From positions 17,172 to 81,171 of the forward strand of contig CAVXYG010000012.1 in assembly GCA_963766005.1 (NCBI GenBank): DNA of 64,000 nt, in the 5' to 3' direction. The notes beneath the pieces are model-generated. The model was not told where the DNA came from. It did no database searches and saw only the letters and a list, made by a program, of their open reading frames with translations. Both the position numbers and the translations under genes were made by a program. Below, in pieces: positions 4,023 to 51,720 of the stretch. Source of the stretch: an uncultured Actinomycetota bacterium. GTDB lineage: Bacteria; Actinomycetota; Actinomycetes; S36-B12; GCA-2699445. Within the stretch, counting starts at the first letter, position 1, and the number at the start of each line of letters is the position of its first letter.

Positions 4023-4024
4023 GG

Positions 4025-4162
4025 TCAGTTGATCTTGCCGAGGTAGTTGTCGGCGACCGCCTTCAGCCCGGCGCCGATGCCGATGGCCATCGCGAACGCG
4101 ATCGAGCCGATCACGACCCACTCGACGGTGGTGAAGTGGGGCGGCACAGCGGCCGCCTGCAT
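4025..4162 (-). CDS. Flp/DUF4244-like small hydrophobic pilin-type protein
   Basis: ATG 4162 in ORF 4025..4237, 45 aa. TTVEWVVIGSIAFAMAIGIGAG resembles the Flp (A)TA(V/I)EY plus hydrophobic core, but the canonical Gly before the cleavage site is missing. Confidence 0.4.
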   Translation of the reverse strand: MQAAAVPPHFTTVEWVVIGSIAFAMAIGIGAGLKAVADNYLGKIN

Positions 4163-4173
4163 GACAGCGGCCG

Positions 4174-5823
4174 CTACACCTCCTCCGGCTCCATCACGAT
4201 GGCGCCGGAGGGGCACTCGGCCACGCACAGCCCGCACCCCTTGCAGTAGTCGAGGTCGAAGGCGTAGTCGCGCCCGTTGTCCCCGAGAGCAGAGCCGAGA
4301 TCGAACTTGCGCACCGCGTTGTCCGGGCAGACGCCGAAGCAGTTGTCGCAGTTGAAGCAGTTGCCGCAGCTCAGGCAGCGGCGGGCCTCGAAGAGCGCCG
4401 TGTCCTCGTCGAGGCCCTGCTTCACCTCGTCGAAGCTGGACATCCGGCGAGCCATGTCCAGCCGTGGCCGCATGGTCTTGGGCGCATCGGTGTAGTACCA
4501 GGTGTTGAGCGTCTCGAGACTGGCCAGCAGCGGTCGCGGCGGATGCGCATAGGGGTCACCGCGGAGCCAGCCGTCGATGGTGCGGGCAGCCTGCTTGCCG
4601 TGCCCGACAGCGACGGTGACGGTGCGCTCGCTGGGGACCATGTCGCCCCCGGCGAAGATGCCCTCGACCCCCGTCATCATGTCGGGGCCGACCTGCACCA
4701 CCCCGTCGACCACGTCGATGCCGTCGACGTCCTCGATCAGCGATAGGTCGACGTCCTGGCCGAGGGCGAGCACCAGGGAATCGGCCTCCAGCGTCTCGAC
4801 CTCTCCGGTCGGCTGGGGGAAGCCGGTCTCATCGAGTTCCATGCGCTCGATCGTCAGGGCCCCCTCCTCCGCGGCCGTGATCGTGGACAGCCACTTGATG
4901 AGGACGCCTTCTTCGAGCGCCTCCTGCACCTCGATCTCGTGGGCGGGCATCCGGTCGCGGGTGCGGCGGTAGACCACGATCGCCTCCTCAGCGCCGAGCC
5001 GCTTGGCGGTGCGTGCGACGTCCATCGCCGTGTTGCCGCCGCCGTAGACCGCGACCTTGCGGCCCAGCAGTGGCTGCTCCTCGCCCTCCATCGAGCGTAG
5101 GACGCTCACCGCGTCGAGGATCTTCGCCGATTCGCCCGCCGGAATGTAGGCGCGCTTGCCGATGTGGGCTCCCACGGCGAGGAAGACCGCGTCGAAGCTG
5201 CCCGCCTCCTTGGCGTGCAGGACGTTGTCCACCCGGGTGTTCAGCTTCAACTGGATGCCAAGGTCGAGGATCCGCTGGATCTCGGCGTCGAGCACATCGC
5301 GCGGGAGGCGGTAGGCCGGGATGCCGAACCGCATCATGCCGCCGGGTTTGGGTCCGGCCTCCCAGATCTCGACGGTGTGCCCGAAGCGCTGCAGATGGTA
5401 GGCGGCGCAGAGTCCCGAGGGCCCGGCGCCGATGACCAGCACTCGTTTGCCGGAGGGTTCGCAAGGCGGTGCCGGAGCGGCCCAGCCCTGCTGCAGCGCG
5501 TGGTCGCCCAGGAATTGCTCCACTGAGTTGATGCCGACGGGGTGGTCGATGTGGGCGCGATTGCAGGCGGTCTGGCACGGGTGGTAGCAGACCCGGCCCA
5601 TGATCGCCGGGAACGGGTTGTCGGCCATGATCTGCCGCCATGCCTTCTCGTAGCCACCGGCCTCGGCCTCGTACAGCCAGCCCTGGATGTTCTCGCCGGC
5701 CGGGCAGGCATCGTTGCACGGGGGGAGGCTGTTGCGATACACGGGCCGTTCGGTCCGCCACGTGCCGGTCTTGTTCGCCAGGCTGGATCCGACGTTGAGC
5801 GTGATGGCGAAGGGCTGTTCCAT
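4174..5823 (-). CDS. GltD-like NAD(P)H flavoprotein fused to a 2x[4Fe-4S] ferredoxin (PorD-like) domain
   Basis: ORF 4174..5823, 549 aa. N-terminal Cys clusters (CNDACPAGE, CYHPCQTAC). Dinucleotide fold VLVIGAGPSGLCAA and GGGNTAMD. C-terminus CLSCGNCFNCDNC...CKGCGLCVAECP. Confidence 0.85.
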   Translation of the reverse strand: MEQPFAITLNVGSSLANKTGTWRTERPVYRNSLPPCNDACPAGENIQGWLYEAEAGGYEKAWRQIMADNPFPAIMGRVCYHPCQTACNRAHIDHPVGINSVEQFLGDHALQQGWAAPAPPCEPSGKRVLVIGAGPSGLCAAYHLQRFGHTVEIWEAGPKPGGMMRFGIPAYRLPRDVLDAEIQRILDLGIQLKLNTRVDNVLHAKEAGSFDAVFLAVGAHIGKRAYIPAGESAKILDAVSVLRSMEGEEQPLLGRKVAVYGGGNTAMDVARTAKRLGAEEAIVVYRRTRDRMPAHEIEVQEALEEGVLIKWLSTITAAEEGALTIERMELDETGFPQPTGEVETLEADSLVLALGQDVDLSLIEDVDGIDVVDGVVQVGPDMMTGVEGIFAGGDMVPSERTVTVAVGHGKQAARTIDGWLRGDPYAHPPRPLLASLETLNTWYYTDAPKTMRPRLDMARRMSSFDEVKQGLDEDTALFEARRCLSCGNCFNCDNCFGVCPDNAVRKFDLGSALGDNGRDYAFDLDYCKGCGLCVAECPSGAIVMEPEEV

Positions 5824-6749
5824 CAGGCTGCCCGCCTTTCTGTCAGGTCGTGGGGGAGTCCGACGCGCCAGAGGTCGGCGGCCATGATCCTTCTCAAGCG
5901 GTGCCCGGCCCCGCGCAGGGCGTCCTCGCGGCGCTTCTCGTCCAGGAGGTCGCCGCGGTCCTCGTACTTCACCGCGCCGTCGATCTCCACGATGAGGCGC
6001 CGGTCGGGCCAGTACAGGTCGGCGTAGTAGGTGCGTCCATCGGCGCCGCGGATCGGTCTCCCCACGGCAGGCTCCGGGAAGCCGACCGACAGGAACAATC
6101 CGCGCGCGTACGACTCCGGCGCGGATTCCGCAGCCGGGTTCGCCAGTGCCGCGGCGTACCGGGCGCGGTCGATGCCCCGGACGCAGCGCATCCTGGCAGA
6201 GGTCCTGAGGAGCTCCTCGCGAATGCTGGTGCGAAAGGATGCGGCGAGGGCTTGTCTGCGGGTCGGGCCGGTCAGCCGGCCGTAACTATCGACCGCCACG
6301 AGGCCTTCGGCAAGAGTGGCCCGGGCCGCGATGTCCAGTGCGGTTCGGGCAGGGGAGGTGCATCGGAGCCCCTGGATGATCGCAATGTCCGACTCGTCGA
6401 TCGTGCGCCTGAAGAAGCGGGCCCCCGGCTGCCTGCGGTGGGTCTTGGGTGTCGCCAGTTCGACGATTTGCCATCCGCTGGGCCGGGGGCACCACAGGCC
6501 GTGGATCGCGGCTGCTCCTTCGCCGACAACGATCGCATCGGGGTGTACCAGCGCAGCGGCGCGGACCTTGTCAAGGAAGTCCACTCTGCCCTCGGGGGAC
6601 ACGAGCAAGACGCCCCTGCCGATCCGCGTCAGGCGTTCGGCTGCCACGGCGTGTCGAAGGGCGTCGCGGCTGACACCGGCGGATCTGGCCTGCTGCACGG
6701 TGAACGGGCGGGTTCCGAACTCGGCGGTCAGTGTCTGCATCGTGCTCAT
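5823..6749 (-). CDS. AbiEi_4-like N-terminal domain / DUF559 (Vsr-like endonuclease fold) C-terminal domain protein
   Basis: ATG 6749 (MSTMQTLTAEFG...) within ORF 5823..7526, 308 aa. The C-terminus YYADLYWPDRRLIVEIDGAVKYE...RREDALRGAGHRLRR is typical of DUF559. Its TGA overlaps the ATG of the downstream gene (TGATG at 5825-5821). Confidence 0.75.
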   Translation of the reverse strand: MSTMQTLTAEFGTRPFTVQQARSAGVSRDALRHAVAAERLTRIGRGVLLVSPEGRVDFLDKVRAAALVHPDAIVVGEGAAAIHGLWCPRPSGWQIVELATPKTHRRQPGARFFRRTIDESDIAIIQGLRCTSPARTALDIAARATLAEGLVAVDSYGRLTGPTRRQALAASFRTSIREELLRTSARMRCVRGIDRARYAAALANPAAESAPESYARGLFLSVGFPEPAVGRPIRGADGRTYYADLYWPDRRLIVEIDGAVKYEDRGDLLDEKRREDALRGAGHRLRRIMAADLWRVGLPHDLTERRAA

Positions 6750-6848
6750 GCGAGCGATCCTGGCGCCGGGGTCACCGCCCGCGCCGCACCGTCGTTGGAG
6801 ACGTGGAAGGGCCGGCGTCCTGTGGATGTGGAGGTGTGCACCCGCTGT

Positions 6849-6928
6849 GGGGGTTTGCACCTCATCCGGGGGCGATTTGGGGGGTCTACTGCTCAGCCTT
6901 TGCACCTGGTGTGGGGGTTTGCACCTGG
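6849..6928. repeat. inverted-orientation copies of the GGTGCAAACCCCC core (left arm)
   Basis: GGGGGTTTGCACCTC at 6849-6863 is the exact reverse complement of 6973-6987. Further copies are TTTGCACCTGG at 6899-6909 and GGGGGTTTGCACCTGG at 6913-6928. Confidence 0.9.
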
Positions 6929-6960
6929 TGCGGGGGTGGAATCGCCCCAGATCCGTTCTT

Positions 6961-7525
6961 TGGCCCCCATACGAGGTGCAAACCCCCACACGGGGTGCAG
7001 ACCCGGCGTCCGGATGGGCTCTCTGGCCCCCGCACGAGGTGCATACCCCTGGAAGGGGTGCAGACCCGGCGTCCGGATGGGCTCTCTGGCCCCCGCACGA
7101 GGTGCAAACCCCCACGCGGGGTGCAGACCCGGCGTCCGGATCGGCCCTCTGGCCCCCGCCCGAGGTGCAGACCCCCGCCGGGGTGCAGACCCGGCGTCCG
7201 GATGGGCTCTCTGGCCCCCGCCCGGGGTGCGACCCCCGCCCGGGGTGCAGACCCGGCGTCCGGATCGGCCCGGAGGCCCCCGCCCGGGGTGCCGACCCCC
7301 GCCCGGGGTGCAGACTTCGTGCCGGCGGGGGCTGGCCGCTCCCCGCCCGGGGTGCAAACCCCCACGCGGGGTGCAGACCCGGCGTCCGGATCGGCCCTCT
7401 GCCCCCCGCCCGAGGTGCAAACCCCCGCCCGGGGTGCAGACTCGGCGTCCGGATGGGCCCCGAGGCCCCTGCCCGGGGTGCCGACCCCCGCCCGGGGTGC
7501 GGACCTGGCACCTGGATCCGCCGCA
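6961..7525. repeat. about 9 tandem units of a ~63-bp minisatellite, each carrying two GGTGCARACCCC cores
   Basis: Units start at 6961, 7024, 7087, 7150, 7212, 7274, 7340, 7400 and 7463, with lengths 63, 63, 63, 62, 62, 66, 60, 63 and ~63. Consensus: TGGCCCCCGCACGAGGTGCAAACCCCCACGCGGGGTGCAGACCCGGCGTCCGGATGGGCTCTC. Confidence 0.95.
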
Positions 7526-7634
7526 AGCACCCGGCGACGGCGGCAGACCCCAGCCCGGGGTGCCGGCGCGGCCGGTGGGAGCGCCCAACGGCCCCCGCGC
7601 GCCACAGCTCGAACCCTCCAGCCGGCCGGGCCGC

Positions 7635-8687
7635 TCACGATTGCTGCTCCTGGGCGGCCCGCTGCTCGCGCACCGAGGCCAGCGCGTCGGCGTCCGCGCC
7701 GGCATCCACCAGCCCATACCGCTCGATGTTGGCATCGGCGATCGACTGCAGCGCTGCCACTACCTCGGGCTCGCCCGGTTCGCCGAACAGGTGCGCGTAG
7801 CGCTTCTGCGGCCGCAGGTACTCCTCGACCGGTACTCGACGACGAATCTTGGACACCTCGGTGATCTCCCCGTACGCCGCCTCGAAGACCGGGAACAGCC
7901 CCGACTCCTTCGCCAACCGGGCCAGGCGCACGGTGTCGCGGCTGGCCGAGCCCCAGCCCAGCGGGCACGGCACCAGCACGTGCAGGTAGCGGGCCCCCCG
8001 CACCTGCATCGCCCGTGTCACCTTGTCCTCCAGGTCGCGCAGGTCGGCCACGGTGGCGGTGGCGACGTAGGGGATCTCGTGCGCCATGGCGATCCGCGGG
8101 AGGTTCTTGCCCTGGCCGAACACGTTCCCCGGATGCGCCCCGACGGCCTGCGTCGTCGTGGTGCGCGCCGCCGGCGGGGTGGCCCCGGAGCGCTGCACCC
8201 CGGTATTCATGTACGCCTCGTTGTCGTAGCAGATGTACAGCACATCGTCGTTGCGCTCGAACATCCCGGACAGCGCGCCCATGCCGATGTCGACGGTGCC
8301 GCCGTCCCCGCCCTGCGCCACGACGCGCACGTCATCGCGGCCCCGGGCCTTCAACGCCGCCGCGATCCCGGTCGCCACCGCCGGGGCGTTGCCGAATAGC
8401 GAATGCAGCCACGGCACCTGCCAGGAGGTCTCCGGGTACGGCGTGGAGAAGACTTCCAGGCATCCGGTGGCGTTGGCGACGATGAGCTGGCCGTCGCACG
8501 CACGCATCGCGGCATCGAGCGCGTAGCGCGCCCCGAGCGCCTCGCCGCAGCCCTGGCAGGCACGATGCCCGCTGGTGATGGCGTTCGGTCGGGCCGGATC
8601 GGACTGCGCGCTGAGCACCTCCAAGGGCAGCAGCCGGTTGCCCACGGCGAAGGAGCCGACTTGGTAGAACTTCAGCGCCGAACTCAT
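7635..8687 (-). CDS. 2-oxoacid (pyruvate-type):ferredoxin oxidoreductase, beta (TPP-binding) subunit
   Basis: ORF 7635..8687, 350 aa. CQGCGE Fe-S ligand motif and GGDGGTVDIGMGAL...YDNEAYMNTG TPP-binding motif. Confidence 0.9.
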   Translation of the reverse strand: MSSALKFYQVGSFAVGNRLLPLEVLSAQSDPARPNAITSGHRACQGCGEALGARYALDAAMRACDGQLIVANATGCLEVFSTPYPETSWQVPWLHSLFGNAPAVATGIAAALKARGRDDVRVVAQGGDGGTVDIGMGALSGMFERNDDVLYICYDNEAYMNTGVQRSGATPPAARTTTTQAVGAHPGNVFGQGKNLPRIAMAHEIPYVATATVADLRDLEDKVTRAMQVRGARYLHVLVPCPLGWGSASRDTVRLARLAKESGLFPVFEAAYGEITEVSKIRRRVPVEEYLRPQKRYAHLFGEPGEPEVVAALQSIADANIERYGLVDAGADADALASVREQRAAQEQQS

Positions 8688-9898
8688 CGCGGCCTCCGGT
8701 CGGTGGCCGCGGGGGTGACGGTGCTGCGGCCGGTGCGGGACATCTCCGCCTTCACCAGTTGCGTGTCGAGGTCGAGGAACAGCAGATCGGGCAGCGCCTC
8801 GGCATCGCGGAGTACTTTCAGCAGCGAGTCCTTCGTGATTGGCCGTCCGCCCAGTCCGGCGACCACCGTGTGGAGATTCGCCGTCGGGCCGAGCGCCGCA
8901 CGCACGTCCTGAGTGACGATGCCTCCGACCCCGACGCTGAACGCCTTCTCCAGCATGACGACGCGTCCTGCGCCGGCCAGAGCCTCGGCGACGGCGCGGT
9001 GCGGGAACGGTCGGAACGTCGTGATCCCCAGCACGCCGATCGGAACACCCTGCGCGCGCAGTTCGTCGACGGCGTCCTTGATGGTGCCCAGGACCGAACC
9101 GAGCGCAACGACGACCGTGCGCGCCCCGTCCAGCCGGTAGCCGCGGACCAGCCCTCCGGCGGTCCGGCCGAAGGAGGCTGCGAACTCCGCGGACAGGTCA
9201 GGGATCGTGCGCAGCGACAGCAGATGCCGCCGGTGCGCCAGGTAGCGCACCTCCGTGAACGCCTCCGGCCCGACCATGGCCCCGATGCTGACCGGGTCGG
9301 CCGGGTCGAGCACCTGGCGAGGCTCGAACGCCGGCAGGTACTCGTCCACGGACTCCTGCGGCGGCAGATCCACCTCCTCCATGGCGTGGGTGAGGATGAA
9401 CCCGTCCATGCAGACCATGACCGGCAGCGACAGGGACTCGGCGAGCCGGAACGCCTGGATGTGGAGGTCCGCGGCCTCCTGGTTGTCCTCGGCGTAGAGC
9501 TGGATCCACCCGGAGTCGCGCTGGCTCATCGCGTCGGAGTGGTCGTTCCAGATGTTGATCGGCGCACCGATGGCCCGGTTGGCGACGGTCATGACGATCG
9601 GCAGGCCGAGTCCGGAGGCGTTGTAGACCGCCTCGACCATGAAGAGCAGTCCCTGGGAGGCCGTGGCCGTGTACGCGCGGGCGCCCGTCGCGCTGGCCCC
9701 GATGGCCACCGACATCGCCGCGAACTCGCTCTCCACGTTGACGAACTCGCAGCCCGGCAACTCCCCGGATTTCACGATCCTCGACAGCGACTCCACGATG
9801 TGCGTCTGCGGCGAGATGGGGTAGGCGCAGATCACGTCCGGCCTGGCCAGGGCCACCGCCTGAGCCACGGCCTGGGAACCCTCGATCTGTCGCTTCAC
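8684..9898 (-). CDS. 2-oxoacid:ferredoxin oxidoreductase, alpha subunit
   Basis: ORF 8684..9898, 404 aa. PorA-like N-terminus GSQAVAQAVALARPDVICAYPISPQT...ESEFAAMS. 4-bp overlaps with both neighbouring genes. Confidence 0.9.
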   Translation of the reverse strand: MKRQIEGSQAVAQAVALARPDVICAYPISPQTHIVESLSRIVKSGELPGCEFVNVESEFAAMSVAIGASATGARAYTATASQGLLFMVEAVYNASGLGLPIVMTVANRAIGAPINIWNDHSDAMSQRDSGWIQLYAEDNQEAADLHIQAFRLAESLSLPVMVCMDGFILTHAMEEVDLPPQESVDEYLPAFEPRQVLDPADPVSIGAMVGPEAFTEVRYLAHRRHLLSLRTIPDLSAEFAASFGRTAGGLVRGYRLDGARTVVVALGSVLGTIKDAVDELRAQGVPIGVLGITTFRPFPHRAVAEALAGAGRVVMLEKAFSVGVGGIVTQDVRAALGPTANLHTVVAGLGGRPITKDSLLKVLRDAEALPDLLFLDLDTQLVKAEMSRTGRSTVTPAATDRRPR

Positions 9899-32719: not shown

Positions 32720-33124
32720 GTGACTGCCCCATCTCTGCGCGGACTGTCCGGCGCACTGGTCCGATACCGCGTCATGGCCTATGTCACCGGGGTGCTGCTC
32801 GGGTTCCTGACCGTCGTCGGGCTGCCCTACAAGTACCTCCTGGACGGGGACGCGTCGTGGTACGCGGTGGGTTGGATGCTGCACGGCTGGGCGTACATCA
32901 TCTATGTCGCCTTCGCCCTCGACCTCGTCTTCCGGCTGCGGTGGAGCCTGCTGCGCGCGCTGGGCGTGGTCCTGGCCGGCACCATCCCGTTCATGTCCTT
33001 CGTCGCAGAGCGCCGCGTGACCCATGCGGTGGACGCGATCCTCGAAGGGAACGCCGAGGGGCCCCGATCCGCCGGGGAAGCCGGGGCAGCGGGCACCGGC
33101 GAGGAGGCTCGCCAGCAGGCCTAG
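32720..33124 (+). CDS. DUF3817 domain-containing integral membrane protein
   Basis: ORF 32720..33124, 134 aa. YRVMAYVTGV...GWMLHGWAYIIYV...GTIPFMSF pattern. Confidence 0.75.
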   Translation: MTAPSLRGLSGALVRYRVMAYVTGVLLGFLTVVGLPYKYLLDGDASWYAVGWMLHGWAYIIYVAFALDLVFRLRWSLLRALGVVLAGTIPFMSFVAERRVTHAVDAILEGNAEGPRSAGEAGAAGTGEEARQQA

Positions 33125-33438
33125 CCCTGGCCCCGCGCACCCGCTGCGTCGGGCGCCGGACCATCGGTCCCGCTCGCCCTTGGCGCGTGGTGCGCGAGGC
33201 GGGCCGATCATGTCGTCGGCGAGGTGTCGCGGGAACCGCTGCGCCGGAGGTCGAAGCCCCACCGTCTTGCGGTCGTGCCCGATCCGGGCGCGTCACGCGT
33301 CTGGTCGCTGTCGTGGCCACTACGCTGTGAGCAACGGAGTCGCTTCCCCGCTCCGCGCAGTGCCCACCAGGGCGGTCGAGCGGTTCTCGCCGCAGGCCGC
33401 GGAGACCGGGCCGGGCGGCCCGGGAAGGGGAGGCCGGC

Positions 33439-34785
33439 GTGCCGGACGGAACTGACCGCACGAATGGCGAGCAGCGGACGAACTCGGCGCGCACCGATCG
33501 GCGCACCTACGTGCTGGACACCTCCGTGCTGCTCTCCGACCCAAACGCGATGCTCCGCTTCGACGAGCACGAAGTCGTGCTGCCGATCGTCGTGGTCACC
33601 GAGTTGGAGGCCAAGCGCACCCACGCCGAGCTCGGGTACTTCGCCCGGGCCGCCCTGCGGATCCTCGACGATCTGCGCGTCGAGCACGGCCGACTCGACG
33701 AGCCGCTGCACATCGGCGATGCCGGCGGGACGCTGCGCGTGGAGCTCAACCACAGTGATGCGGCGGTCCTGCCCTCCGGCTTCCGGCTGGGGGACAACGA
33801 CACCCGGATCCTGGCGGTGGCGCGCAGCCTGGCCGCCGAGGGCGCCGACGTGGTCCTGGTGAGCAAGGATCTGCCGCTGCGGGTCAAGGCGTCGGCCGTG
33901 GGCCTGCAGGCGGAGGAGTATCGCGCGGAACTCGTGGTCGAGTCCGGCTGGACGGGCATGGCGGAAATCGACGTGGCGGGCTCGGTGATCGACGAGTTGT
34001 ACGCGGAGACCTGCGTGGATCTCGACGAAGCGCGCGACCTGCCCTGCAACACCGGTGTGGTGCTCGTCAGTGAGCGGGGGAGCGCGCTCGCGCGAGCCAC
34101 CGCCGACAAGACCCTGCGGCTGGTGCGCGGGGACCGGGAGGCCTTCGGGCTGCACGGTCGCAGCGCCGAGCAGCGGATCGCCCTGGATATCCTGCTGGAC
34201 CCCTCGGTCGGCATCGTGTCGCTGGGCGGGCGCGCCGGGACCGGCAAGAGCGCGTTGGCGCTGTGCGCGGGGCTGGAGGCGGTGCTGGAACGCCGAGAGC
34301 ATCGCAAGGTGATGGTGTTCCGGCCGCTCTACGCCGTCGGCGGCCAGGAGCTCGGATACCTGCCGGGCAGTGAGAACGACAAGATGACGCCGTGGGCGCA
34401 GGCGGTCTTCGACACCCTGTCCGCCGTGGTCAGCGCCGAGGTGATGGACGAGGTGCTCGACCGCGGGCTGCTGGAGGTCCTGCCGCTGACGCACATCCGT
34501 GGCCGGTCGCTGCACGACGCCTTCGTCATCGTCGACGAGGCCCAATCGCTGGAGCGCAACGTCCTGCTGACCGTGCTGTCGCGGATCGGCCAGGACTCCC
34601 GGGTCGTGCTCACCCACGACGTGGCCCAGCGGGACAACCTGCGGGTGGGCCGACACGACGGCGTGGTGGCGGTGATCGAGCAGCTGAAGGGACACCCCCT
34701 CTTCGGACACGTCACGTTGACGCGCGCCGAGCGCTCCCCGATCGCCGCGCTGGTCACCGAGGTGCTGGAGGGCATGCCAACTTGA
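33439..34785 (+). CDS. phoH2: PhoH2: PIN-domain RNase fused to a PhoH-like ATPase
   Basis: ORF 33439..34785 (GTG start), 448 aa. PIN N-terminus [12 protein letters not shown]...VVTELE...[11 protein letters not shown]. Walker A GRAGTGKS and Walker B VIVDEAQ. Confidence 0.9.
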
Positions 34786-34799
34786 CGTGCGTGTCAAGT

Positions 34800-35351
34800 A
34801 TGGTGGCTGCCATGGAGATCACGACGAACGCCGACAAGTTGCGCGACATCAACGAGTTCGACGCCCGCGAAACTCATGGCATCCTGCAGTTCATCGGGCA
34901 GAATCTCGGGCCGAAGCCGTGGTTCATCGCCATCTTCAAGCGCGTCGGCCCTCGCATCGACCCCGTGATGACGCGGCTCAGCGGCGGCGAATGGATGAAG
35001 TCGGTCTACGGGCTGCCGGGCCTGGTGCTCCACACCACGGGGGCGAAGTCCGGTGTGCCGCGCGCCAACCCGCTGCTCTATGTGCGCGACGGCGACGACT
35101 TCATCGTCGTCGGGACCAACTTCGGCCAGCCCAAGCATCCTGCGTGGACCGGCAATCTCAAGGCGCACCCGGACGCCGCCGTCGAGGTCGGTGGTGTGAC
35201 GCTGCCGGTTCGGGCGTCCCTGATCGAGGGCGATGCCTGGGACGAGCTCTTCGCCCGGCTCGTGGCGGTCTACCCGGGCTACGCGCTCTACCTGGATCGC
35301 CGTGGCGATCTCCCGCCGCGGATGTTCCGGCTGGTGCCGCAGGTGTCGTAG
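34800..35351 (+). CDS. nitroreductase-family deazaflavin (F420)-dependent oxidoreductase (Ddn-like)
   Basis: ATG 34800 in the frame of ORF 34392..35351, 183 aa. LHTTGAKSGVPRANPLLYVRDGDDFIVVGTNFGQPKHPAWTGNL is the family signature. Confidence 0.8.
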   Translation: MVAAMEITTNADKLRDINEFDARETHGILQFIGQNLGPKPWFIAIFKRVGPRIDPVMTRLSGGEWMKSVYGLPGLVLHTTGAKSGVPRANPLLYVRDGDDFIVVGTNFGQPKHPAWTGNLKAHPDAAVEVGGVTLPVRASLIEGDAWDELFARLVAVYPGYALYLDRRGDLPPRMFRLVPQVS

Positions 35352-35762
35352 CAGCTCCGGGCTGTCGGGGATGCCCAGACGTCTGGAGCGGGCCTCGCCG
35401 TAGGTTTGGGCGGGGCCGATCCGGGGCATGCTCAGGGTGTCCGCAGAACTCCCCGACAGGGCCCGCGATTCGGAGCCCAAGGGGATCGAGCTCGGATCCT
35501 CGGCCAGCCGCCGAGGCTGGAGAATTGGCTCGTCCGTTTGGCCATGTGTGGAACGGACTTCGAGGTCAGCCCTTCGGGGGTTGGGTTGACCGGTGCCCGG
35601 GCCGTCCTGGAGGCGGTCCGGGTTTCTCTGGCGCCCCGAGACTCCGGTGGCCTTCCCCTCGCCCCGTGACATTGCTCACCACGTATCGGCTTGCGCTCAG
35701 GCAGCGCCGTCTGGTCACACTGGAATCCCATGCACGTCTCAGATGTGTCACAAGGAGTTCCT

Positions 35763-36458
35763 GTGAAGGTGAGAATCCTGGCCATGGCCGGTGCTGCCGG
35801 AGTCCTGGCCGCGGTGACGCTGGTCGTTGCCCAGCCGGCGGCGGAGACGACGACCGCGCTCATGCCCGACACCGCGCCCCGAGCGGTGGCAGCGATCGAG
35901 CTGGAACTGAACGCGGTCGAGCGGGAAGCCGCCCGGGTCGCAGCGGAGGCCTCGCGCCGGGAGGTGCCGGCGGTGCTGGCCGAGCGCGAGGAAGCGCGCC
36001 GAGTCGAGCAGGAGCAGGCGCGCGCCGCGGCGGAGGCCAAGGCGCGGCAGGAGGCGGAGGCGAAGGCGGCGGCTGAGGCGAAGGCGGCGGCTGAGGCCGA
36101 GGCCAAGGCCGCGGCGCCGGCGGCCCCGTCGACGGGGCGTCCCACGAACGACTACGGGATCGCGGGCAGCGCCTACACCGGGCCGATGTACAACGCGGGC
36201 TCGGAGTCCACGCGCAAGTGCATCGTGGCCAAGGAGTCCGGCGGCAACTACGGGATCGTGTCGAGCAACGGCCGGTACCACGGGGCGTACCAGTTCTCGC
36301 GTCCGACCGGCGATGCCACCGCCCAGCGGATGGGCCGGGCGGATCTCGTGGGCACCCCGGTGAGCCAGTGGAGCCGCTACGAGCAGGACATGGCGTTCTG
36401 GACGCTGTGGAACAACGGTGCTGGGCGGGGCAACTGGCCAACCGCGGCGGGCTGCTGA
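35763..36458 (+). CDS. secreted protein with Ala/Glu/Lys-rich linker and C-terminal Rpf/Apf-like transglycosylase-like (lysozyme-fold) domain
   Basis: GTG 35763 preceded by AAGGAG, 231 aa. Signal peptide VKVRILAMAGAAGVLAAVTLVVAQPAA. C-terminal C..ESGGNYG...G.YQFS....W...C pattern. Confidence 0.75.
   Translation: MKVRILAMAGAAGVLAAVTLVVAQPAAETTTALMPDTAPRAVAAIELELNAVEREAARVAAEASRREVPAVLAEREEARRVEQEQARAAAEAKARQEAEAKAAAEAKAAAEAEAKAAAPAAPSTGRPTNDYGIAGSAYTGPMYNAGSESTRKCIVAKESGGNYGIVSSNGRYHGAYQFSRPTGDATAQRMGRADLVGTPVSQWSRYEQDMAFWTLWNNGAGRGNWPTAAGC
36105..36458 (+). repeat. 354-bp direct repeat, copy 1 (3' end of the first Rpf-like gene)
   Basis: Identical to 36817..37170 at an offset of 712 bp, apart from one synonymous difference (T at 36420 versus C at 37132). 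Confidence 0.9.
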
Positions 36459-36587
36459 TCCCGCGCGCGCCCGATTCGGCCGTGCTCGCCGTCGACGCCG
36501 GGGCCTTCGCGAGGTTTCATCCGCGCCCACCGGGGCAGGACCGGGTGCACAGAGTCCCGGTCCGACCCCCGGGGCGTGGGAGTCGAG

Positions 36588-37170
36588 ATGATGAAGCGCA
36601 CTGGAGCCGCTGCCGGTGTTGCGGTGCTGCTGGCCTCATCGCTGGCCCTGGCCGCCGGCGCGCAGGCCGACCCGGCCATGAACATCAGCCGCAACGCGAT
36701 GGTCGTGGACAGCGTCAGCGCATTCGTCGCCGCTGAGGACGTGCGGATCGCGGCTGAGGCGAAGGCGCGTGCGGAGGCGGAGGCGGAGGCGGCAGGCGAA
36801 GGCGGCGGCTGAGGCCAAGGCCGCGGCGCCGGCGGCCCCGTCGACGGGGCGTCCCACGAACGACTACGGGATCGCGGGCAGCGCCTACACCGGGCCGATG
36901 TACAACGCGGGCTCGGAGTCCACGCGCAAGTGCATCGTGGCCAAGGAGTCCGGCGGCAACTACGGGATCGTGTCGAGCAACGGCCGGTACCACGGGGCGT
37001 ACCAGTTCTCGCGTCCGACCGGCGATGCCACCGCCCAGCGGATGGGCCGGGCGGATCTCGTGGGCACCCCGGTGAGCCAGTGGAGCCGCTACGAGCAGGA
37101 CATGGCGTTCTGGACGCTGTGGAACAACGGTGCCGGGCGGGGCAACTGGCCAACCGCGGCGGGCTGCTGA
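36588..37170 (+). pseudogene. second Rpf/Apf-like secreted protein gene, interrupted by a +1 frameshift
   Basis: ATG 36588 (MMKRTGAAAGVAVLLASSLALAAGAQA signal peptide) runs into TGA at 36810-36812. The catalytic-domain frame (ORF 36769..37170) is +1. The break lies near 36792-36796, inside a GCGGAG/GCGAAG codon repeat. Confidence 0.65.
36817..37170 (+). repeat. 354-bp direct repeat, copy 2
   Basis: See copy 1. 353 of 354 positions are identical by eye. Confidence 0.9.
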
Positions 37171-37193
37171 GGCTCGCCGGCTGAGCTGGGGCA

Positions 37194-37235
37194 CGACGAC
37201 GCTGCCCGGCCCCCGGGGCGGGCTTCGCGTCGTCG
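37194..37235. terminator. hairpin between the convergent Rpf-like and fumarase genes
   Basis: CGACGACGC (37194-37202) pairs with GCGTCGTCG (37227-37235) around a GC-rich loop. Lies between the stops at 37170 (+) and 37282 (-). Confidence 0.45.
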
Positions 37236-37281
37236 CTCGGCCCCGGGCACCCTGCGAAACCGGCACTCGATGGACCGCCCG

Positions 37282-38949
37282 CTACCCCTGCGGCGCGCCC
37301 ACCGGGATCCGAGCGGCGATGGGGCGCAGCCGGTCGGCGTAGAAGTCGTTGCCCTTGTCGTCCACGATGACGAAGGCGGGGAAGTCCTCCACCTCGATGC
37401 GCCAGACGGCCTCCATCCCCAGGTCGGGGAAGTCGAGGACCTCGACCTTGCGGATGTTGTCGCTGGCCAGGCGAGCCGCCGGGCCGCCGATTGAGCCGAG
37501 GTAGAACCCGCCGTACTCGGCGCAGGCGTCGGTCACCGCCGAGGAGCGGTTTCCCTTGGCCAGCATGACGAACGAGCCGCCGGCCGACTGGAACTGGGCC
37601 ACATAGGAATCCATCCGTCCAGCCGTCGTGGGGCCGAACGAGCCCGATGGCATCCCCTCAGGGGTCTTTGCCGGTCCGGCGTAGTAGACGGCGTGCTCGC
37701 GGAGGTAGTCCGGCATGGGCTCGCCGGCATCGAGCATGCCCTTGATCCGGGCATGGGCGATATCCCTGGCGACGATGAGCGGCCCGGTCAAGCTGACCCG
37801 AGTTCCGACCGGCAGTGTCCCCAGCGCCGCCCGCACGTCGGCCATAGGCTGCTGCAGGTCGATCCGCACGACGTCGGCGGACAGCTTCTCGTCGCTGACC
37901 ACCGGCAGGTAGTGCGCGGGATCGCGTTCCAGCTGCTCCAGGAAGACACCGTCCGGGGTGATCTTGGCCTTGGCCTGCCGGTCGGCGGAGCAGGACACGG
38001 CGATCGCCACCGGGCAGGACGCGCCGTGCCGCGGCATCCGCACGACGCGCACGTCGTGACAGAAGTACTTGCCCCCGAATTGCGCGCCGATGTCGAAGCC
38101 GCGGGTGAGCTCGAGCACTCGGGACTCCAGCTCCACGTCGCGGAAGGCATGCCCGCCGAGCGACCCCGCGGTGGGCAGGGTGTCCAAGTACTTCGTGCTG
38201 GCGTACTTCGCCATCTTCAGCGCGTCCTCGGCGCTGGTTCCGCCGATGACGATCGCGAGGTGGTACGGCGGGCAGGCGGAGGTGCCGATGAGCCGCAGCT
38301 TCTCATCCAGGAACCGCATCATCGAGTCGGGGTTCAGCAGCGCCTTGGTCTCCTGGTACAGGTACGACTTGTTCGCCGACCCCCCGCCCTTGGCGATGTA
38401 GAGCAGCTCGTACTGCGTCTCGTGCCCGGGCTTGGTGTCGGCGTACAGGTCGATCTGCGCCGGCAGGTTCGTGCCCGTGTTCCGCTCATCCCACATCGTC
38501 AGCGGCGCCATCTGCGAGTAGCGCAGGTTCAACTGCTGGTAGGCGTCGAAGATGCCGCGCGCGATGGGCTCCTCGTCCGGACCGTCGGTCAGCACCTGCG
38601 AGCCCCGCTTGCCCATCACGATCGCCGTGCCGGTGTCCTGGCACATCGGGAGCACGCCCCCGGCGGCGATATTGGCGTTCTTCAGCAGATCCAGCGCCAC
38701 GAAGCGGTCGTTCGGGCTGGCATCGGGGTCGTCGAGGATGCTGCGCAGCTGCTGCAGGTGCGCCGGACGCAGCAGGTGCTGGATGTCGTGGATCGCCTCG
38801 AACGTCAACTGCCGCAGGGCCTCGGGCTCCACCCGGAGGAACTCCCGGCCGGCGGCGGAGATCAGCTGCACGCCGTCGGTCGTGATCAAGCGGTACGGCG
38901 TCTCGTCTGCGGCCAGCGGCAGCATCGGCGTGTACTGGAAGTCGACCAT
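37282..38949 (-). CDS. class I (Fe-S dependent) fumarate hydratase
   Basis: ATG 38949 in ORF 37282..39399, 555 aa. [47 protein letters not shown] motifs of FumA/FumB-type enzymes. Confidence 0.93.
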
Positions 38950-40603: not shown

Positions 40604-41122
40604 TCAGACGGCGGCGGGTTCCGGCTGCGTCTCCTGGTCGTGGGGTTCCGGCTCGTCGTCGCGGTGGCCGGTGATCGCTGACAGCAGTACCGCGGCGGCC
40701 GCGACCACGAGCAGCAGGGAGGCCAGCCCGGCCGGTGTCTGCAGGAACTGCACCGCCATGCCCAGCCCGGGCGACACGCCGACGACGGTGCCGACGATGT
40801 CCTGGGAGGTGGCGACGAAGGGATCGGCCTGCGCGTTGGCGTCGCCCTTGGTCACCAGCGTCCCGTCGGCGTCGATGTCGAGCAGCCGGTGGGTGGTGAC
40901 GCCCTGGCCGACGCGGAAGGAGATGACGTCCCCGGCCTCCGGCTCGGCGCCGGTGTCGACCAGCACCAGCGAGCCGGTGGGGATCTGCGGCGCCATCGAC
41001 GCCGACTCCACCACGTAGGCGCGGTACGGCGCGGCACCGGTCGCGAACAGGCCGGCGGCGACCAGGAGCACGACGGCGGCCGCGGCCAGGACGACACCGA
41101 GGACTCGGGTGATGGCGGTCAT
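40604..41122 (-). CDS. signal peptidase I, SipW/archaeal-eukaryotic type (S26B)
   Basis: ATG 41122 in ORF 40604..42244, 172 aa. N-terminal TM, then VVESASMAPQIPTGSLVLV (Ser nucleophile), ISF...TTHRL (His), KGDAN, and a C-terminal TM helix. Confidence 0.8.
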   Translation of the reverse strand: MTAITRVLGVVLAAAAVVLLVAAGLFATGAAPYRAYVVESASMAPQIPTGSLVLVDTGAEPEAGDVISFRVGQGVTTHRLLDIDADGTLVTKGDANAQADPFVATSQDIVGTVVGVSPGLGMAVQFLQTPAGLASLLLVVAAAAVLLSAITGHRDDEPEPHDQETQPEPAAV

Positions 41123-41183
41123 GGGGATCCCTTCAGGAGCAGGACGGGTGCGGGCGGGGAGGCGGCGGGCCGGGAGTGATGCG

Positions 41184-41250: not shown

Positions 41251-41841
41251 TCAGGCGCCGGGGTTGATGCCCGGCTGGGTGGCCACGACGCTGTAGGGCA
41301 GGCTCAGCGGGATCGCGATCGGCAGCTGCGTCTGCAGGTTCTCCGACAGCTTCAGGGAGAACTCCACGGTCGCGGTGTCGCCCGGGACCAGGCCCTCGGT
41401 CAGCTGCAGGTCCGACGGCAGCGGGGCCACACCCGGCGTGCCGGGCGGGTAGTTGCCGTTCAGGTTGTCGGAGAAGAACACGCGCTCCCCGTCGACGGTG
41501 ATCTCGATCTCGGCGTAGGTGCCGAGCTGGTTGACGGCCTTGAAGGTCGGGTGGTTCGGATCGAACTGCAGCCACACGTCCTGGGCGTTGCGGCCGATGT
41601 TCTTCACCTCGAAGTCGCCGGTGGCCACCTCGCCCGGCAGCAGCGATCCCAGATCCAGGTCCGGGGTCGTGGTGCGGTTGCCGTCGACGCTGACGGCGAT
41701 GCTGCCCATCGACATGGTGATCGCGCCGCCGGAGTTGATGTCGGAGAAGTAGCTGCTCGTGGTGCCCACGGCGGCGGCCCCCAGGCCCAGTGCCACCACG
41801 ACGGCGGCGGCGCTCGCGACGATCTTGCGGTTCTTGCTCAT
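41251..41841 (-). CDS. TasA/camelysin-like secreted protein with a SipW-cognate signal peptide
   Basis: ORF 41251..41841, 196 aa. MSKNRKIVASAAAVVVALGLGAAAVGTTSSYFSD matches the SipW-dependent signal peptide class (...G(T/S)xAYFSD). Beta-rich body. Confidence 0.8.
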   Translation of the reverse strand: MSKNRKIVASAAAVVVALGLGAAAVGTTSSYFSDINSGGAITMSMGSIAVSVDGNRTTTPDLDLGSLLPGEVATGDFEVKNIGRNAQDVWLQFDPNHPTFKAVNQLGTYAEIEITVDGERVFFSDNLNGNYPPGTPGVAPLPSDLQLTEGLVPGDTATVEFSLKLSENLQTQLPIAIPLSLPYSVVATQPGINPGA

Positions 41842-42129
41842 GATGGTCTCCTACGAATGCTCGGGCAGCCCCGACGGAATCCGCGGGCTGCGACTGTGCG
41901 ATGAGAATCGGCCCCCCGCCCGCCTTGTCCCCAAGGCCCCCGGTGGAGTGTCGGTTCCGTCTGACACCCCGGGTATCCCCCAACCCCGGCACCGCAACCC
42001 CGATCCGCCCCCGCCCGAACCCTGCCCGAACATGCCCCGAACGAACCCACGAACTCCTGCCGCAAGACCAACACCCAAGACCCCGTGGATCCAGGGTCGA
42101 TGCAGGTTGCGGTGCCATCGCTGTGGCTG

Positions 42130-48694: not shown

Positions 48695-49609
48695 CTACTC
48701 CAGGCTCTCGCCGGTCAGCAGGACGAAGACGTCCTCCAGGCTCGCCGCCCGGCGGTGACCGTCACCGAGCTCGTCCTGCACGGCCATCGGTAGTCCTTCG
48801 GCGCGCAGGATGCTCACCGAGGGGCCGTTGCGCCGCGCGGGCAAGCCGGCCTGGCTCGCGGCTCGCTCCACGCGGGCCAGGTAGGCCGGAGGCCCGTAGT
48901 ACTCCAGCGCCTCGGTGCCGGCATGCGCCGTCAGCAGCTCCAAGGGCGTGCCGGCGGCGACGACCCGCCCGGCGTTCATGATCGCCACCTGGTCGGCCAG
49001 ACGCTCGGCCTCTTCGATGTAGTGGGTGCTCATGAGCAGGGTCTTGCCGCGGGCTCGCAGGTCGTCGATGAGGGTCCACAGCTCCTGCCGGATCTGCGGA
49101 TCGAGGCCCACCGTGGGCTCATCGAGGAGGATCAGTTCCGGGTCGTGCACCAAGGACCGGGCGATGAGCAGCCGCCGTTTCATCCCGCCGGACAGGGTCT
49201 TGATCCTGTCGTCCGCCCGGTCGGTGAGACGGGCCAGCGCCAGCGCCGCATCGACGGCTGCGGCGCGTCGGGACCGGGGGACCCGCAGCAGCGTGGCCCA
49301 GACCATCGCGTTCTCCCGACAGGTCAGCTGGTCCTCCAGCCACTCCTGCTGCGGCACGACGCCCATGGCGGCTCGGGCGCGCTTGGACTGCTGCGGGATC
49401 GGGAGGCCGAGGACTTCGATGGTTCCGCCGGTGGGCTCGGCCTGGCCGGTGAGCATCCGCATCGTGGTGGATTTCCCGGCGCCGTTGGGGCCGAGCAGCC
49501 CGAAACAGGTGCCGCGCGGGACTTCCAGCGACAGGCCGTCGACAGCCGTGAGGTCGCCGAACCGCTTCACCACGTGGGAGAGCCGGATTGCCGGCGACGT
49601 CGGCGTCAC
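48695..49609 (-). CDS. ABC transporter ATP-binding protein
   Basis: ORF 48695..49609, 304 aa. Walker A GPNGAGKST, signature LSGGMKRRL, Walker B LILLDEPT. Confidence 0.9.
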   Translation of the reverse strand: MTPTSPAIRLSHVVKRFGDLTAVDGLSLEVPRGTCFGLLGPNGAGKSTTMRMLTGQAEPTGGTIEVLGLPIPQQSKRARAAMGVVPQQEWLEDQLTCRENAMVWATLLRVPRSRRAAAVDAALALARLTDRADDRIKTLSGGMKRRLLIARSLVHDPELILLDEPTVGLDPQIRQELWTLIDDLRARGKTLLMSTHYIEEAERLADQVAIMNAGRVVAAGTPLELLTAHAGTEALEYYGPPAYLARVERAASQAGLPARRNGPSVSILRAEGLPMAVQDELGDGHRRAASLEDVFVLLTGESLE

Positions 49610-49728
49610 CGGACCACGATACGTGCGTCGTGAGGCACGCGCGCTCGCCCTGCGCGGCCGTGCTGCTGCGGGGCCGTCCCGGCGCCACGCGTCGGACGCG
49701 CTCCGGTGGCCGGCGGCTGCGTTACCGT

Positions 49729-51004
49729 GTGGCGGTGAACTACCTCGCGCTCTACATCGGCAAGCTGGTTGTCGTCGTCGGCCGCTTGCTGGGCAAGCGG
49801 GGTTCCTCGTTCCCGGGCCTGGTCGCGGAGAAGATCAGCCCCGGCTTCCTGCGCAACGCCCTGGAGTCGCTGCCGGGCGGGGTCATCGTCGTGACCGGCA
49901 CCAACGGCAAGACCACCACCGTGAAGATGATCGCGGACATCCTCGGCACCCAGCACCAGGTCCTGACCAACCGGACCGGCGCGAACTTCACCCGCGGCAT
50001 CGCCTCCACGGTGCTCATGGGGATGTCGATGCGCGGCAAGCTGCGCCACACGATCGGGGTGTTCGAGATCGACGAGGCCTGGGCGGTCCGCTTCGTGGAC
50101 CAGGTGCGCACCCGGGGCGTGGTCATCACCAACGTGATGCGCGACCAGATGGACCGCTTCGGGGAGATCGACCACACCGCGCGCCTGCTGACGAAGGTCG
50201 TGGCCGCTGCCGAGGAATTCGCGGTGCTCAACGCCGATGACCCCCGCGTCGTCGCGATGGCGTCGGCGGCCGGCTGCCCGGTCACCTACTTCGGGGTCGG
50301 AGCCGAGTTGCGGCGCGTCTTCATCACCGACGACGAGTTGTACGCCGCCGACATCGACGTGGACGCCAAGCACGCCGCCCGTCCAGTGCCGCAGGTCGTG
50401 CTGGAGCGGATCGACCCGGGGTCCATCACCGTGAGCACGCGAGGCCGGACAGATGGACATCGCGCTGCACGTCTTCGGCTCCCACAACGCGCAGAACGCC
50501 ACGGCCGCGCTGGCGGCCGGGCTGCGGGCGGGTGTGCCGCTGGACCAGGCGGCGACCGCGCTGGAGCACATGATGGCGGCATTCGGGCGCGGCGAGTTCA
50601 TCGATGTCGGCGGTCGGCGGCTGCTGCTGCAGCTGGTGAAGAACCCCGGCGGATTCCGCTACTCGTTGATGGATGTCGCCTCGGTGACGCCGGCGGAGGT
50701 GCTCATCGCGATCAATGACGAGTACGCCGACGGCCGCGACGTCTCGTGGCTGTGGGACGTGGACTTCCGGTCGCTGGCGCAATGGCCGGTCTCCACGACC
50801 GGCACCCGGGCGGAGGACATGGCGCTGCGGCTGGAGTACGACGGCGTCCCCGTCCGCGAGGCCACCCCCGACATGCGCCAGGCGATCGAGCAGTTGCGCG
50901 ATCGGCACCCGGCCGGGACGACGCTCGTGGTGTGCGCCACCTACACCGCGATGTTCGACATGCGGGAGATCCTGGCCACCATGGCGGAGGTGACGCCGGT
51001 ATGA
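49729..51004 (+). pseudogene. murT: lipid II isoglutaminyl synthase subunit MurT, split by a frameshift
   Basis: N-terminal part in ORF 49588..50718 (GKRGSSFPGLVAEKI...VTGTNGKTTT Mur-ligase P-loop). C-terminal part in ORF 50453..51004 (...HVFGSHNAQNATAALA..., DUF1727-like tail). The frame change lies between 50435 and 50452. The start (GTG 49729 or 49735) is uncertain. Confidence 0.8.
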
Positions 51005-51720
51005 AGCCGCTGCACCTGGTGCACCTCTACCAGCGGGAGATGAACATCTACGGCGACACCGGCAACCGACTGGTGCTCACCAAGCGTCTGGAGCTGTCCG
51101 GCATCCCGCACGAGGTGTCGATCTGCGGCGTGGGCGATCCGCTGCCCGCCGATCCGCACTTGATCCTCGGCGGCGGCGGTCAGGACGTCGGCCAGGCCGC
51201 GGTCGGCGCGGATCTGCAGGGCAAGCGCGACGGCTTGGCGGCGATGAAGGCCGACGGCGTCCCCATGCTCATGATCTGCGGCATGTACCAGTTGTTCGGC
51301 CACTACTTCCAGACCCACGAGGGGGAGCGGATCCCCGGCGCAGGCCTGCTGGACCTGCACACCGAGGGGCAGCCGCAGCGGCTCATCGGCAACATCACCG
51401 AGGACTCGGACTTCGGCGAGCTCGTCGGCTACGAGAACCACAGCGGCCTGACGTACCTGCACGACGGCGTGCAGCCGTTGGGGCGAGTCGTCCGCGGCAG
51501 CGGGAACAACGGCACGGACGGGGGCGAAGGCGCACTCGACGGTTCGATCATCGGTACCTACCTGCACGGCCCGGTGCTCGCCAAGAGCCCCAGGCTGGCC
51601 GACCACCTGTTGGGGGAGGCGCTCGCCGCGGCCGGGATCGAGGCCGAGCTCGGGCCGTTCCCGGAGCTCGATGCGCGTGCCGGGCGCGCCGCGGCCGCGG
51701 CGAAGGCCCGGCCCCGATAG
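51001..51720 (+). CDS. gatD: lipid II isoglutaminyl synthase glutaminase subunit GatD (CobB/CobQ-like amidotransferase)
   Basis: ATG 51001 overlaps the murT TGA (ATGA), 239 aa. LYQREMNIYGDTGN, ICGMYQLFG (Cys nucleophile), YENHSG, and H in TYLHGP. Confidence 0.85.
   Translation: MKPLHLVHLYQREMNIYGDTGNRLVLTKRLELSGIPHEVSICGVGDPLPADPHLILGGGGQDVGQAAVGADLQGKRDGLAAMKADGVPMLMICGMYQLFGHYFQTHEGERIPGAGLLDLHTEGQPQRLIGNITEDSDFGELVGYENHSGLTYLHDGVQPLGRVVRGSGNNGTDGGEGALDGSIIGTYLHGPVLAKSPRLADHLLGEALAAAGIEAELGPFPELDARAGRAAAAAKARPR

Follow-up and report, generated by a model that had tools for sequence, protein, structure and literature searches.

Tandem Rpf-like genes c1 and c2 of an uncultured actinobacterium: probable gene conversion of the catalytic module and a one-base interruption of the second gene

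How did two adjacent genes with unrelated beginnings come to share a virtually identical end, and why is the second of them out of frame? Both questions are raised by a locus at positions 35,763 to 37,170 of a 64,000-nucleotide stretch of DNA (the window) from an uncultured Actinomycetota bacterium (assembly GCA_963766005.1, contig CAVXYG010000012.1). The two genes, designated c1 and c2, encode small proteins with a C-terminal domain resembling that of the resuscitation-promoting factors (Rpf). An earlier interpretation, called here the sequence-only reading, considered recent duplication or gene conversion as the origin of the shared end, and a phase-variable switch, a pseudogene or a sequencing error as the origin of the broken frame. 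The answer preferred here, to which we assign a probability of about 0.8, is that c1 and c2 are old tandem paralogs, that a recent conversion carried the module of c1 into c2, and that c2 is interrupted by a single extra C, which is either a mutation or an assembly error and does not belong to a slippage switch.

The two genes and their shared 3' module

The elements of the locus, all on the forward strand, are:

35763-36458: gene c1, from GTG to TGA, intact, 231 amino acids, identified by its open reading frame (ORF) and ribosome-binding site
c1 protein: N-terminal signal or anchor segment, Ala/Glu/Arg/Lys helix (residues 38-117) and C-terminal domain of ~105 amino acids, as predicted by an AlphaFold2 model with a mean predicted local distance difference test score (pLDDT) of 86
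36016-36115: degenerate tandem repeats coding for Ala/Glu/Lys in the c1 linker (Tandem Repeats Finder; periods 6, 9, 12, 18 and 24)
36099-36458: repeat copy A, the putative donor, comprising the linker end and the complete Rpf-like domain of c1; 360 nt with one mismatch to copy B
36513-36539: promoter-like element GGTTTC-N14-GGGCAGG in the c1-c2 spacer, conserved in the window, L006 and L007
36588-36812: c2 5' fragment, from ATG to a premature TGA at 36810-36812, 74 amino acids, separate gene call P0047; it contains a Sec signal peptide (AQA/DP), the c2-type N-terminal region and the beginning of the Ala/Glu linker
36752-36815: period-6 (GGCGGA-like) tract in the c2 linker, which holds the frameshift (Tandem Repeats Finder; period 6 with 10.5 copies and period 18 with 4.4 copies)
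36793: surplus C that places the remainder of c2 in the +1 frame; its removal restores one ORF of 193 amino acids
36794-37170: c2 3' fragment in the +1 frame, with a putatively c1-derived linker end and the Rpf-like domain
36811-37170: repeat copy B, the putative converted tract in c2, c1-type by comparison with orthologs

The GTG start of c1 lies six bases after a ribosome-binding site (AAGGAG, 35752-35757), and orthologs of this gene at the same locus in three relatives (L006, L007 and L012) are 229-243 amino acids long. Gene c2 has its own ribosome-binding site (GGGAG, 36578-36582), and its N-terminus includes DPAMNISRNAMVVDSVSAF. The N-terminal halves of the two proteins have no detectable similarity (BLASTP E = 48). 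The catalytic part of c2 lies in the +1 frame, which is uninterrupted between 36769 and the TGA at 37170; the corresponding piece of 133 amino acids was also called as a separate gene (P0002). In the source assembly the two pieces of c2 are two gene calls on one contig of 432,821 bp, available from NCBI and ENA. A protein-cluster look-up places the exact c2 fragment proteins in one assembly only, and the exact 133-amino-acid product was not found as a recorded gene in the collection searched.

The segments 36105-36458 and 36817-37170 (354 nt) differ at a single position, T36422 versus C37134, and the difference is synonymous, with GCT and GCC both coding for Ala. The exact match at an offset of 712 reaches further to the left, to 36099 and 36811, so that the repeat comprises 360 nt with one mismatch. 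Its 3' end coincides exactly with the two TGA stops, and in the 3' flanks the identity falls to about 50%. Measured in 30-nt windows, identity is 100% along the tract and no higher than 57% beyond it, as expected for a bounded tract. The sequence-only reading had described two genes with a signal peptide, an Ala/Glu-rich linker and a C-terminal lysozyme-fold domain, unrelated N-terminal halves, a near-identical 354-bp 3' repeat with one synonymous difference, and a second copy in which the signal-peptide frame stops early and the catalytic frame is +1. This description holds throughout: the layout is borne out by the ORFs, AlphaFold2 and Foldseek, the frames of c2 are as described, and the repeat is now extended to 360 bp.

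The origin of the shared module becomes apparent when the locus is compared with its counterparts in relatives, where the conserved order is phoH2, F420H2 quinone reductase, c1, c2 and class I fumarase:

L006 (GCA_964510455.1): phoH2, F420H2 quinone reductase, c1 of 243 amino acids, intact c2 of 168 amino acids, class I fumarase on the opposite strand
L007 (ERZ28668863): order as in L006; c1 of 242 and c2 of 175 amino acids, both intact
L001 (ERZ25039600), 5336-9460: five tandem paralogs at this locus
L009 (metagenome / Logan contig), 428-1578: an extra paralog, then the beginning of a c1-type gene
L011 (metagenome / Logan contig), 328-2513: an extra paralog, c1, then a c2-type gene truncated where the contig stops
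L014-L016 (ERZ3792527 and sister samples), 1-1239 in L014: the end of a c1-type gene, the intact hybrid P0007, and the first part of a c2-type gene that runs off the contig

All module identities refer to the final 312 nt of the genes. There, c1 and c2 are 99.7% identical in the window, compared to 72% in L006 and 74% in L007. The c2 orthologs of L006 and L007 are 85% identical to each other and the c1 orthologs 79%, and the module of the window matches c1 orthologs at 79% and c2 orthologs at 69-72%. The window paralogs are thus closer to each other than to their respective orthologs, which is the pattern left by gene conversion. Since the same pair of modules shows 72-74% identity in L006 and L007, the value of 99.7% is far beyond what chance or selection alone would yield. 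In a neighbour-joining tree of the C-terminal domains, both window copies fall within the c1 clade. In turn, the N-terminus of the window c2 (AQA/DPAMN...VAAE..RIAAE) is of the c2 type and orthologous to that of the intact c2 genes of L006 and L007 (ADPAMN..., VAAE..RIAAE), and the conservation of the upstream element GGTTTC-N14-GGGCAGG in the same two relatives indicates that the c2 5' region is orthologous as well. The phylogenies of the two gene halves, proposed in the sequence-only reading as a test for conversion, are therefore incongruent, with the N-terminus of c2 grouping with c2 orthologs and its C-terminal domain with c1. At the junction, the converted module carries the c1 linker end PAAPSTGRPTNDYGIAGS in place of the short AWENDMSGIGPS junction of c2-type genes.

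A pair of genes with different N-termini thus existed already before L006 and L007 branched off. Because the two-gene locus is intact in these relatives and the shared module is of the c1 type, the transfer is most probably a conversion from c1 to c2 and not a duplication. These observations point to c1 having overwritten the 3' 0.36-0.4 kb of c2, recently to judge by the near-identity of the copies. Of the two origins that the sequence-only reading had offered, conversion limited to the catalytic module stands, and recent duplication is unlikely, as both c1 and c2 are present in L006 and L007. A tandem duplication of the 3' half, or a chimera produced by unequal crossing-over, might be invoked instead of the conversion of an existing c2, given that the number of copies at the locus varies and that hybrid genes, represented by P0007 and combining a c2-like N-terminus with a C-terminal domain like that of c1, exist as extra copies in L014-L016. 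Such an event would, however, have added a copy instead of replacing a module, whereas the window contains exactly two genes with the order and flanks found in L006 and L007, and both the N-terminus of c2 (ADPAMN...) and the element upstream of the gene have their orthologs in the c2 genes there. We consider this origin unlikely.

The preferred course of events is as follows. The genes c1 and c2 are old tandem paralogs encoding small secreted proteins at a conserved actinobacterial locus, and a recent non-reciprocal recombination replaced part of c2 by its counterpart from c1, namely the linker end together with the complete catalytic module. The 3' end of the tract is at the stop codon, where homology ceases, and its 5' end is within the Ala/Glu-coding repeats. 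As sequenced, c2 is broken by the extra C36793 at the 5' edge of the tract and can yield no more than a 74-residue signal-peptide piece and a catalytic piece devoid of an export signal, so that it would be non-functional.

The same process recurs at this locus in relatives. In L001, paralogs p1 and p2 share 189 nt with two mismatches at their 5' ends (the first 189 nt), p1 and p5 share 283 nt with six mismatches at their 3' ends, and p2 and p4 share 199 nt with one mismatch inside the domain. These near-identical blocks stand amid much more divergent sequence, so that the paralogs are mosaics. There is ample documentation that bacterial paralogs undergo gene conversion and that concerted evolution occurs across prokaryotes (PMC6053082, PMC12046097, PMC13061034), and the locus resembles the PE/PPE and esx cases of M. 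tuberculosis in that paralogs are closer than orthologs, tract boundaries are sharp, and blocks are distributed as a mosaic among tandem copies. It differs from them in that the process is confined to one of the two modules of a secreted enzyme and in that the process recurs at one locus in several uncultured actinobacterial lineages.

Fold and family of the catalytic module

The C-terminal domain was compared with known families at the levels of sequence profile and predicted structure. With the Pfam family Transglycosylas (PF06737), c1 scores 18.7 bits (E = 0.003) and the C-terminal fragment of c2 21.1 bits (E = 0.0005). Among the NCBIfam models of the aggregation-promoting factors (Apf; NF052398 / NF052397), the full model gives 29.4 and 26.7 bits, mainly from the low-complexity linker, against a cut-off of 170, and the C-terminal model gives 18-19 bits against a cut-off of 40 and covers positions 5-32 of 80. 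The 42 close homologs, which are 45-70% identical over the alignment, share the layout of c1, and none of them carries a precomputed Pfam domain. In an alignment of 46 sequences, C153, E158, S159, G161, Y163, G170, G174, A175, Q177, F178 and T182 are invariant, and C231 is nearly so. The profile built from this alignment matches only Rpf chains in the PDB (E = 0.003-0.1), the best being RpfB (E = 0.003), with RpfC and RpfE also matched. In the alignment, the KESGGNY segment of the family pairs with CEAGGNW of RpfB, and E158 aligns to the catalytic Glu of RpfB.

In the AlphaFold2 model of c1, the signal region is disordered and is followed by one helix of 80 residues and by a compact C-terminal domain with a pLDDT above 90, in which E158 is located at the end of helix 145-159. 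A Foldseek search of the PDB places RpfB, RpfE and RpfC (4emn, 4cge and 4ow1) at the top, with target TM-scores of 0.78-0.79, root-mean-square deviations of 2.1-2.5 Å, 25-28% identity and a probability of 1.00; MltE and c-type lysozymes rank next. Additionally, a phmmer search with the 105-residue domain against 1.84 billion representative proteins found 777 relatives at E <= 1e-3, among which P0085, P0176, P0111, P0098 and P0130 (E of about 1e-10 to 1e-15) exceed the cut-off of PF06737, with 33-117 bits.

As the fold and the transitive homology agree in spite of the low Pfam score, the c1/c2 domain can be assigned, by sequence and model, to a divergent branch of the Rpf / transglycosylase-like lysozyme fold, and it is predicted to cleave peptidoglycan (muralytic activity). 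The Rpf-like assignment of the sequence-only reading is upheld in this form, with Foldseek and phmmer in agreement; of the two families it had named as candidates, the sub-threshold scores with Transglycosylas/Rpf are matched by the fold, and Apf falls far below its cut-offs.

The features shared with Rpf (RpfA-E of M. tuberculosis and Rpf of Micrococcus luteus, PF06737) include secretion from actinobacteria, a small lysozyme-like domain, two conserved cysteines, and an invariant Glu in an ESGGN(Y/W) motif that ends the first helix; RpfB, RpfE and RpfC are the closest structures. The features of Rpf, among them the role of the catalytic Glu and the Cys next to it, have been described (PMC4648573). 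Several differences are found as well. The c1/c2 domain reaches 18.7-21.1 bits compared to a cut-off of 27, and the first Cys is placed five residues before the Glu (C-IVAK-E), instead of adjoining it as in the CE pair of Rpf. In Rpf the Cys beside the Glu forms a conserved disulfide with a C-terminal Cys; C153, which is invariant, and C231, which is nearly so, are candidates for such a bond. The family has an extra conserved stretch at the N-terminal side of the domain (NDYGIAGSAYTGPMYN...), the domain is joined to an Ala/Glu helix of 80 residues in place of G5, DUF348 or LysM modules, and the genes occur in tandem arrays of two to five paralogs at one conserved locus. A further difference is that the Rfam search revealed no ydaO-type riboswitch at c1/c2.

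The Apf proteins of Lactobacillus are similar to c1 and c2 in having a signal peptide, a low-complexity Ala-rich linker and a small conserved C-terminal domain, as well as in the weak NCBIfam matches, and the genes apf1 and apf2 are arranged in tandem. Both are present in L. johnsonii (PMC8876136). In contrast to true members of that family, c1/c2 score 29 bits versus 170, match 28 of the 80 positions of the C-terminal model, and belong to another phylum. Literature searches turned up no connection between Rpf and gene conversion, and none between Rpf and Apf.

The interruption of c2

The extra base is found in the context GAGGCGG[C]AGGCGAAGG, and its deletion yields (GCGGAG)4-GCGAAG-GCGGCGGCT..., after which the repaired linker differs from that of c1 solely by in-frame gaps of 6 nt. 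C36793 is flanked by G and A and lies outside any homopolymer or run. All c2-type genes examined are in frame, including those of L006 and L007, the proteins P0035, P0037 and P0039-P0041, and the partial genes of L011 and L014-L016.

These properties bear on the switch contemplated in the sequence-only reading, namely that slipped-strand mispairing in the Ala/Glu codon repeat would toggle c2 on and off. The frameshift does sit inside a repetitive GCGGAG / GGC-rich tract, and in that respect c2 resembles the contingency loci based on simple sequence repeats. However, the repeat periods are 6 and 18, so that slippage keeps the frame; more generally, length changes by repeat units of 3, 6 or 18 nt are in-frame. 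Contingency loci depend on a homopolymer or on a repeat unit that is not a multiple of three, and neither is present at C36793, where a lone C between G and A lengthens no run. Linkers in the relatives, all more distant than strains, differ in length by in-frame amounts only, and none is frameshifted. What survives of that proposal is the location of the lesion in the codon repeat, now narrowed to a single base; the switch itself is very improbable. Programmed +1 frameshifting by the ribosome at GGC-UGA-G (36807-36813), as in prfB, has even less to recommend it. Skipping T36810 after the GGC codon would enter the catalytic frame exactly, and a purine-rich GAAGG is located 4 nt upstream of that codon, but the site is not conserved, all c2-type and hybrid orthologs are single ORFs, re-pairing of tRNA-Gly from GGC to GCU would be poor, and the site has no slippery motif; we regard it as barely credible. 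Internal initiation at GTG 36769 was also examined and rejected, as the product, MRRRRRRRQAK..., would lack an export signal.

The choice between the two remaining explanations, an error in the sequence and a real lesion, is influenced by a second frameshift in the window:

49588-51004, forward strand: murT (Mur_ligase_M and MurT_C), split by a +1 frameshift near 50443-50452

The MurT ortholog aligns in two frames, with residues 4-245 at 49723-50448 and residues 249-429 at 50459-51001. According to Pfam, Mur_ligase_M is cut at profile position 152 of 200 and MurT_C is complete in the next frame. Dropping one base of GGCCGG near 50445 restores RGGQMDIAL, equal in length to RGEVHAVAL of the ortholog. 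In L006, murT is a single ORF of 429 amino acids, and in the window gatD (51001-51671) is intact downstream of it. Wherever murT has been studied it is an essential gene; its lesion is either an assembly error or the surprising loss of a normally essential cell-wall function, and it speaks for the occurrence of indel errors in this assembly. The presence of this second +1 shift means that either the assembly contains indel errors or the strain carries several fresh lesions. No other unexplained frame switch on the same strand was found in the whole window by a hidden Markov model of codon-position G+C, which was used together with the completeness of Pfam domains because a tblastx coverage map is uninformative at high G+C. 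Suspected frameshifts at 41130, 27312 and 4028-4164 proved to be ordinary gene boundaries.

If C36793 is an assembly or consensus error, the true c2 is an intact gene of 193 codons with a module converted by c1, a special case of the conversion reading. The similar shift in murT, also by a single base outside a homopolymer, raises the odds of an error at c2 to roughly even, which is where we leave them. An error would agree with the intact frames of the c2-type genes of relatives (full-length in L006, L007 and several proteins from the homolog search, partial in L011 and L014-L016), with the intact promoter-like element, ribosome-binding site and signal peptide of c2, and with a module that shows no decay, having one synonymous change in 360 nt. 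Moreover, the site borders the 360-bp repeat, and at the edges of repeats reads that map to several places easily introduce errors during polishing. The remainder of the window nevertheless implies a low error rate: the Pfam domains of 20 other large ORFs are complete, and about 10 neighbours are collinear with their orthologs. DUF4307, SURF1, DUF3817, PhoH2, F420H2 quinone reductase, c1, fumarase and SLT are intact and collinear in the comparison with L006 and L007. A random error is unlikely a priori to fall in this 0.6-kb gene. A real frameshift, to which we give somewhat less than an even chance, would make c2 a fresh pseudogene, tolerated since c1 encodes the same catalytic module. The source annotation has two separate ORFs from this sequence, the redundancy of paralogs after conversion would relax selection on c2, and the range of two to five paralogs among relatives suggests that gain and loss of copies are common. 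Every observation in favour of an error stands against the pseudogene, as does the fact that no second lesion has accumulated in c2.

Several points weigh against the overall reading of conversion followed or accompanied by a single-base interruption. C36793 is known from the consensus of one assembly. The alignment of the Ala/Glu repeats is ambiguous, which leaves doubt about where precisely the tract begins on its 5' side and on which side of that point the insertion falls. The loci used for comparison all come from metagenomes or metagenome-assembled genomes and may be chimeric, although the pattern recurs in independent assemblies. Neither c1 nor c2 reaches the gathering cut-off of PF06737, the Apf cut-offs are missed as well, and the enzymatic activity of both proteins is a prediction.

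Surroundings of the locus and implications

Upstream of c1 and in its relatives, a conserved segment accompanies the gene:

35545-35762, forward strand: conserved non-coding leader/promoter region of c1, about 215 nt, conserved in 7 lineages
about 35564-35590: hairpin 1 of the leader
about 35597-35625: GC hairpin of the leader, followed by a pyrimidine run
Leader in relatives: L006 5390-5609, L007 5783-6000, L008 1-196, L009 1140-1357, L011 976-1197, L012 170-390

This segment precedes c1-type genes whatever gene is located upstream. Both hairpins show compensatory changes among the 7 lineages, and their loops include UUCGGGGGUU and UCCUGGAGG. The c1 leader, whose sequence includes GGAGGCGGTCCGGGT ... 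TTCACACTGG, holds the palindrome GTGACATTGCTCAC, a TTGC box and TCACACTGG; across the c1-type leaders the palindrome takes the form GTGAGnnnnCTCAC, and the TCACACTGG box is invariant in the 7 lineages. A terminator-like match is present at 35606-35622. Rfam was searched for ydaO/c-di-AMP or other riboswitches upstream. No family reached its gathering threshold anywhere in the window, and within 35300-37300 a relaxed limit of E <= 5 added nothing but a chance match to a snoRNA. The segment may serve as promoter and operator of the Rpf-like gene or may form a structured leader of a new kind. The promoter-like element of c2, about 50 nt upstream of its start, resembles promoters of the SigB/SigF type (GTTT-N15-GGGTA), so that c2 may have a stress-type promoter of its own.

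With regard to the coverage of relatives, a scan of genome contigs with full-length c1 was dominated by the Ala/Glu pattern and gave at least 4 loci, all distant, and a scan of metagenome contigs with the catalytic domain gave three short contigs. The F420H2 quinone reductase gene of L001 is on the opposite strand. An uppS-like prenyltransferase gene is located between DUF3817 and phoH2 in L001, L006 and L007; it is absent there in the window, where the gap between these genes (33031-33475) is about 440 nt. Further from the locus, the G+C signal usual at third codon positions is missing from 1.6 kb on the reverse strand (6031-7641). This stretch codes for an AbiEi-antitoxin-like protein (AbiEi_4, AbiEi_1) and may represent a toxin-antitoxin or abortive-infection module gained by horizontal transfer; it adjoins a 2-oxoacid:ferredoxin oxidoreductase operon. 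A camelysin-like (Peptidase_M73) gene at 41251-41850 on the reverse strand adjoins a signal-peptidase-like (S24/S26) gene at about 40604-41104, and a TadE-like gene is found at 3612-4193.

We can speculate that the phoH2-fumarase locus is a cassette system driven by recombination, in which N-terminal helix or targeting modules and C-terminal catalytic modules of secreted muralytic proteins are repeatedly re-assorted by conversion among two to five tandem paralogs, the frameshifted c2 is a real and reversible 'off' copy that conversion by c1 could repair or overwrite, and c1 is governed by an undescribed structured leader. Such a system is improbable; if it existed, the set of cell-wall hydrolases would be varied by recombination and not by slippage.

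Conversion of c2 by c1, together with the interruption of c2 by one base, involves a mechanism of a known kind in a poorly described family, and no new mechanism. Muralytic proteins of the Rpf type control growth and the exit from dormancy in Actinobacteria. For annotation, the locus provides a definition of the family and a warning that the calls of 74 and 133 amino acids are pieces of one gene. It represents a divergent, unannotated branch of the Rpf fold, arranged in a tandem array whose modules have been swapped by conversion in several uncultured lineages, and it offers a clean bacterial example of module-limited concerted evolution.

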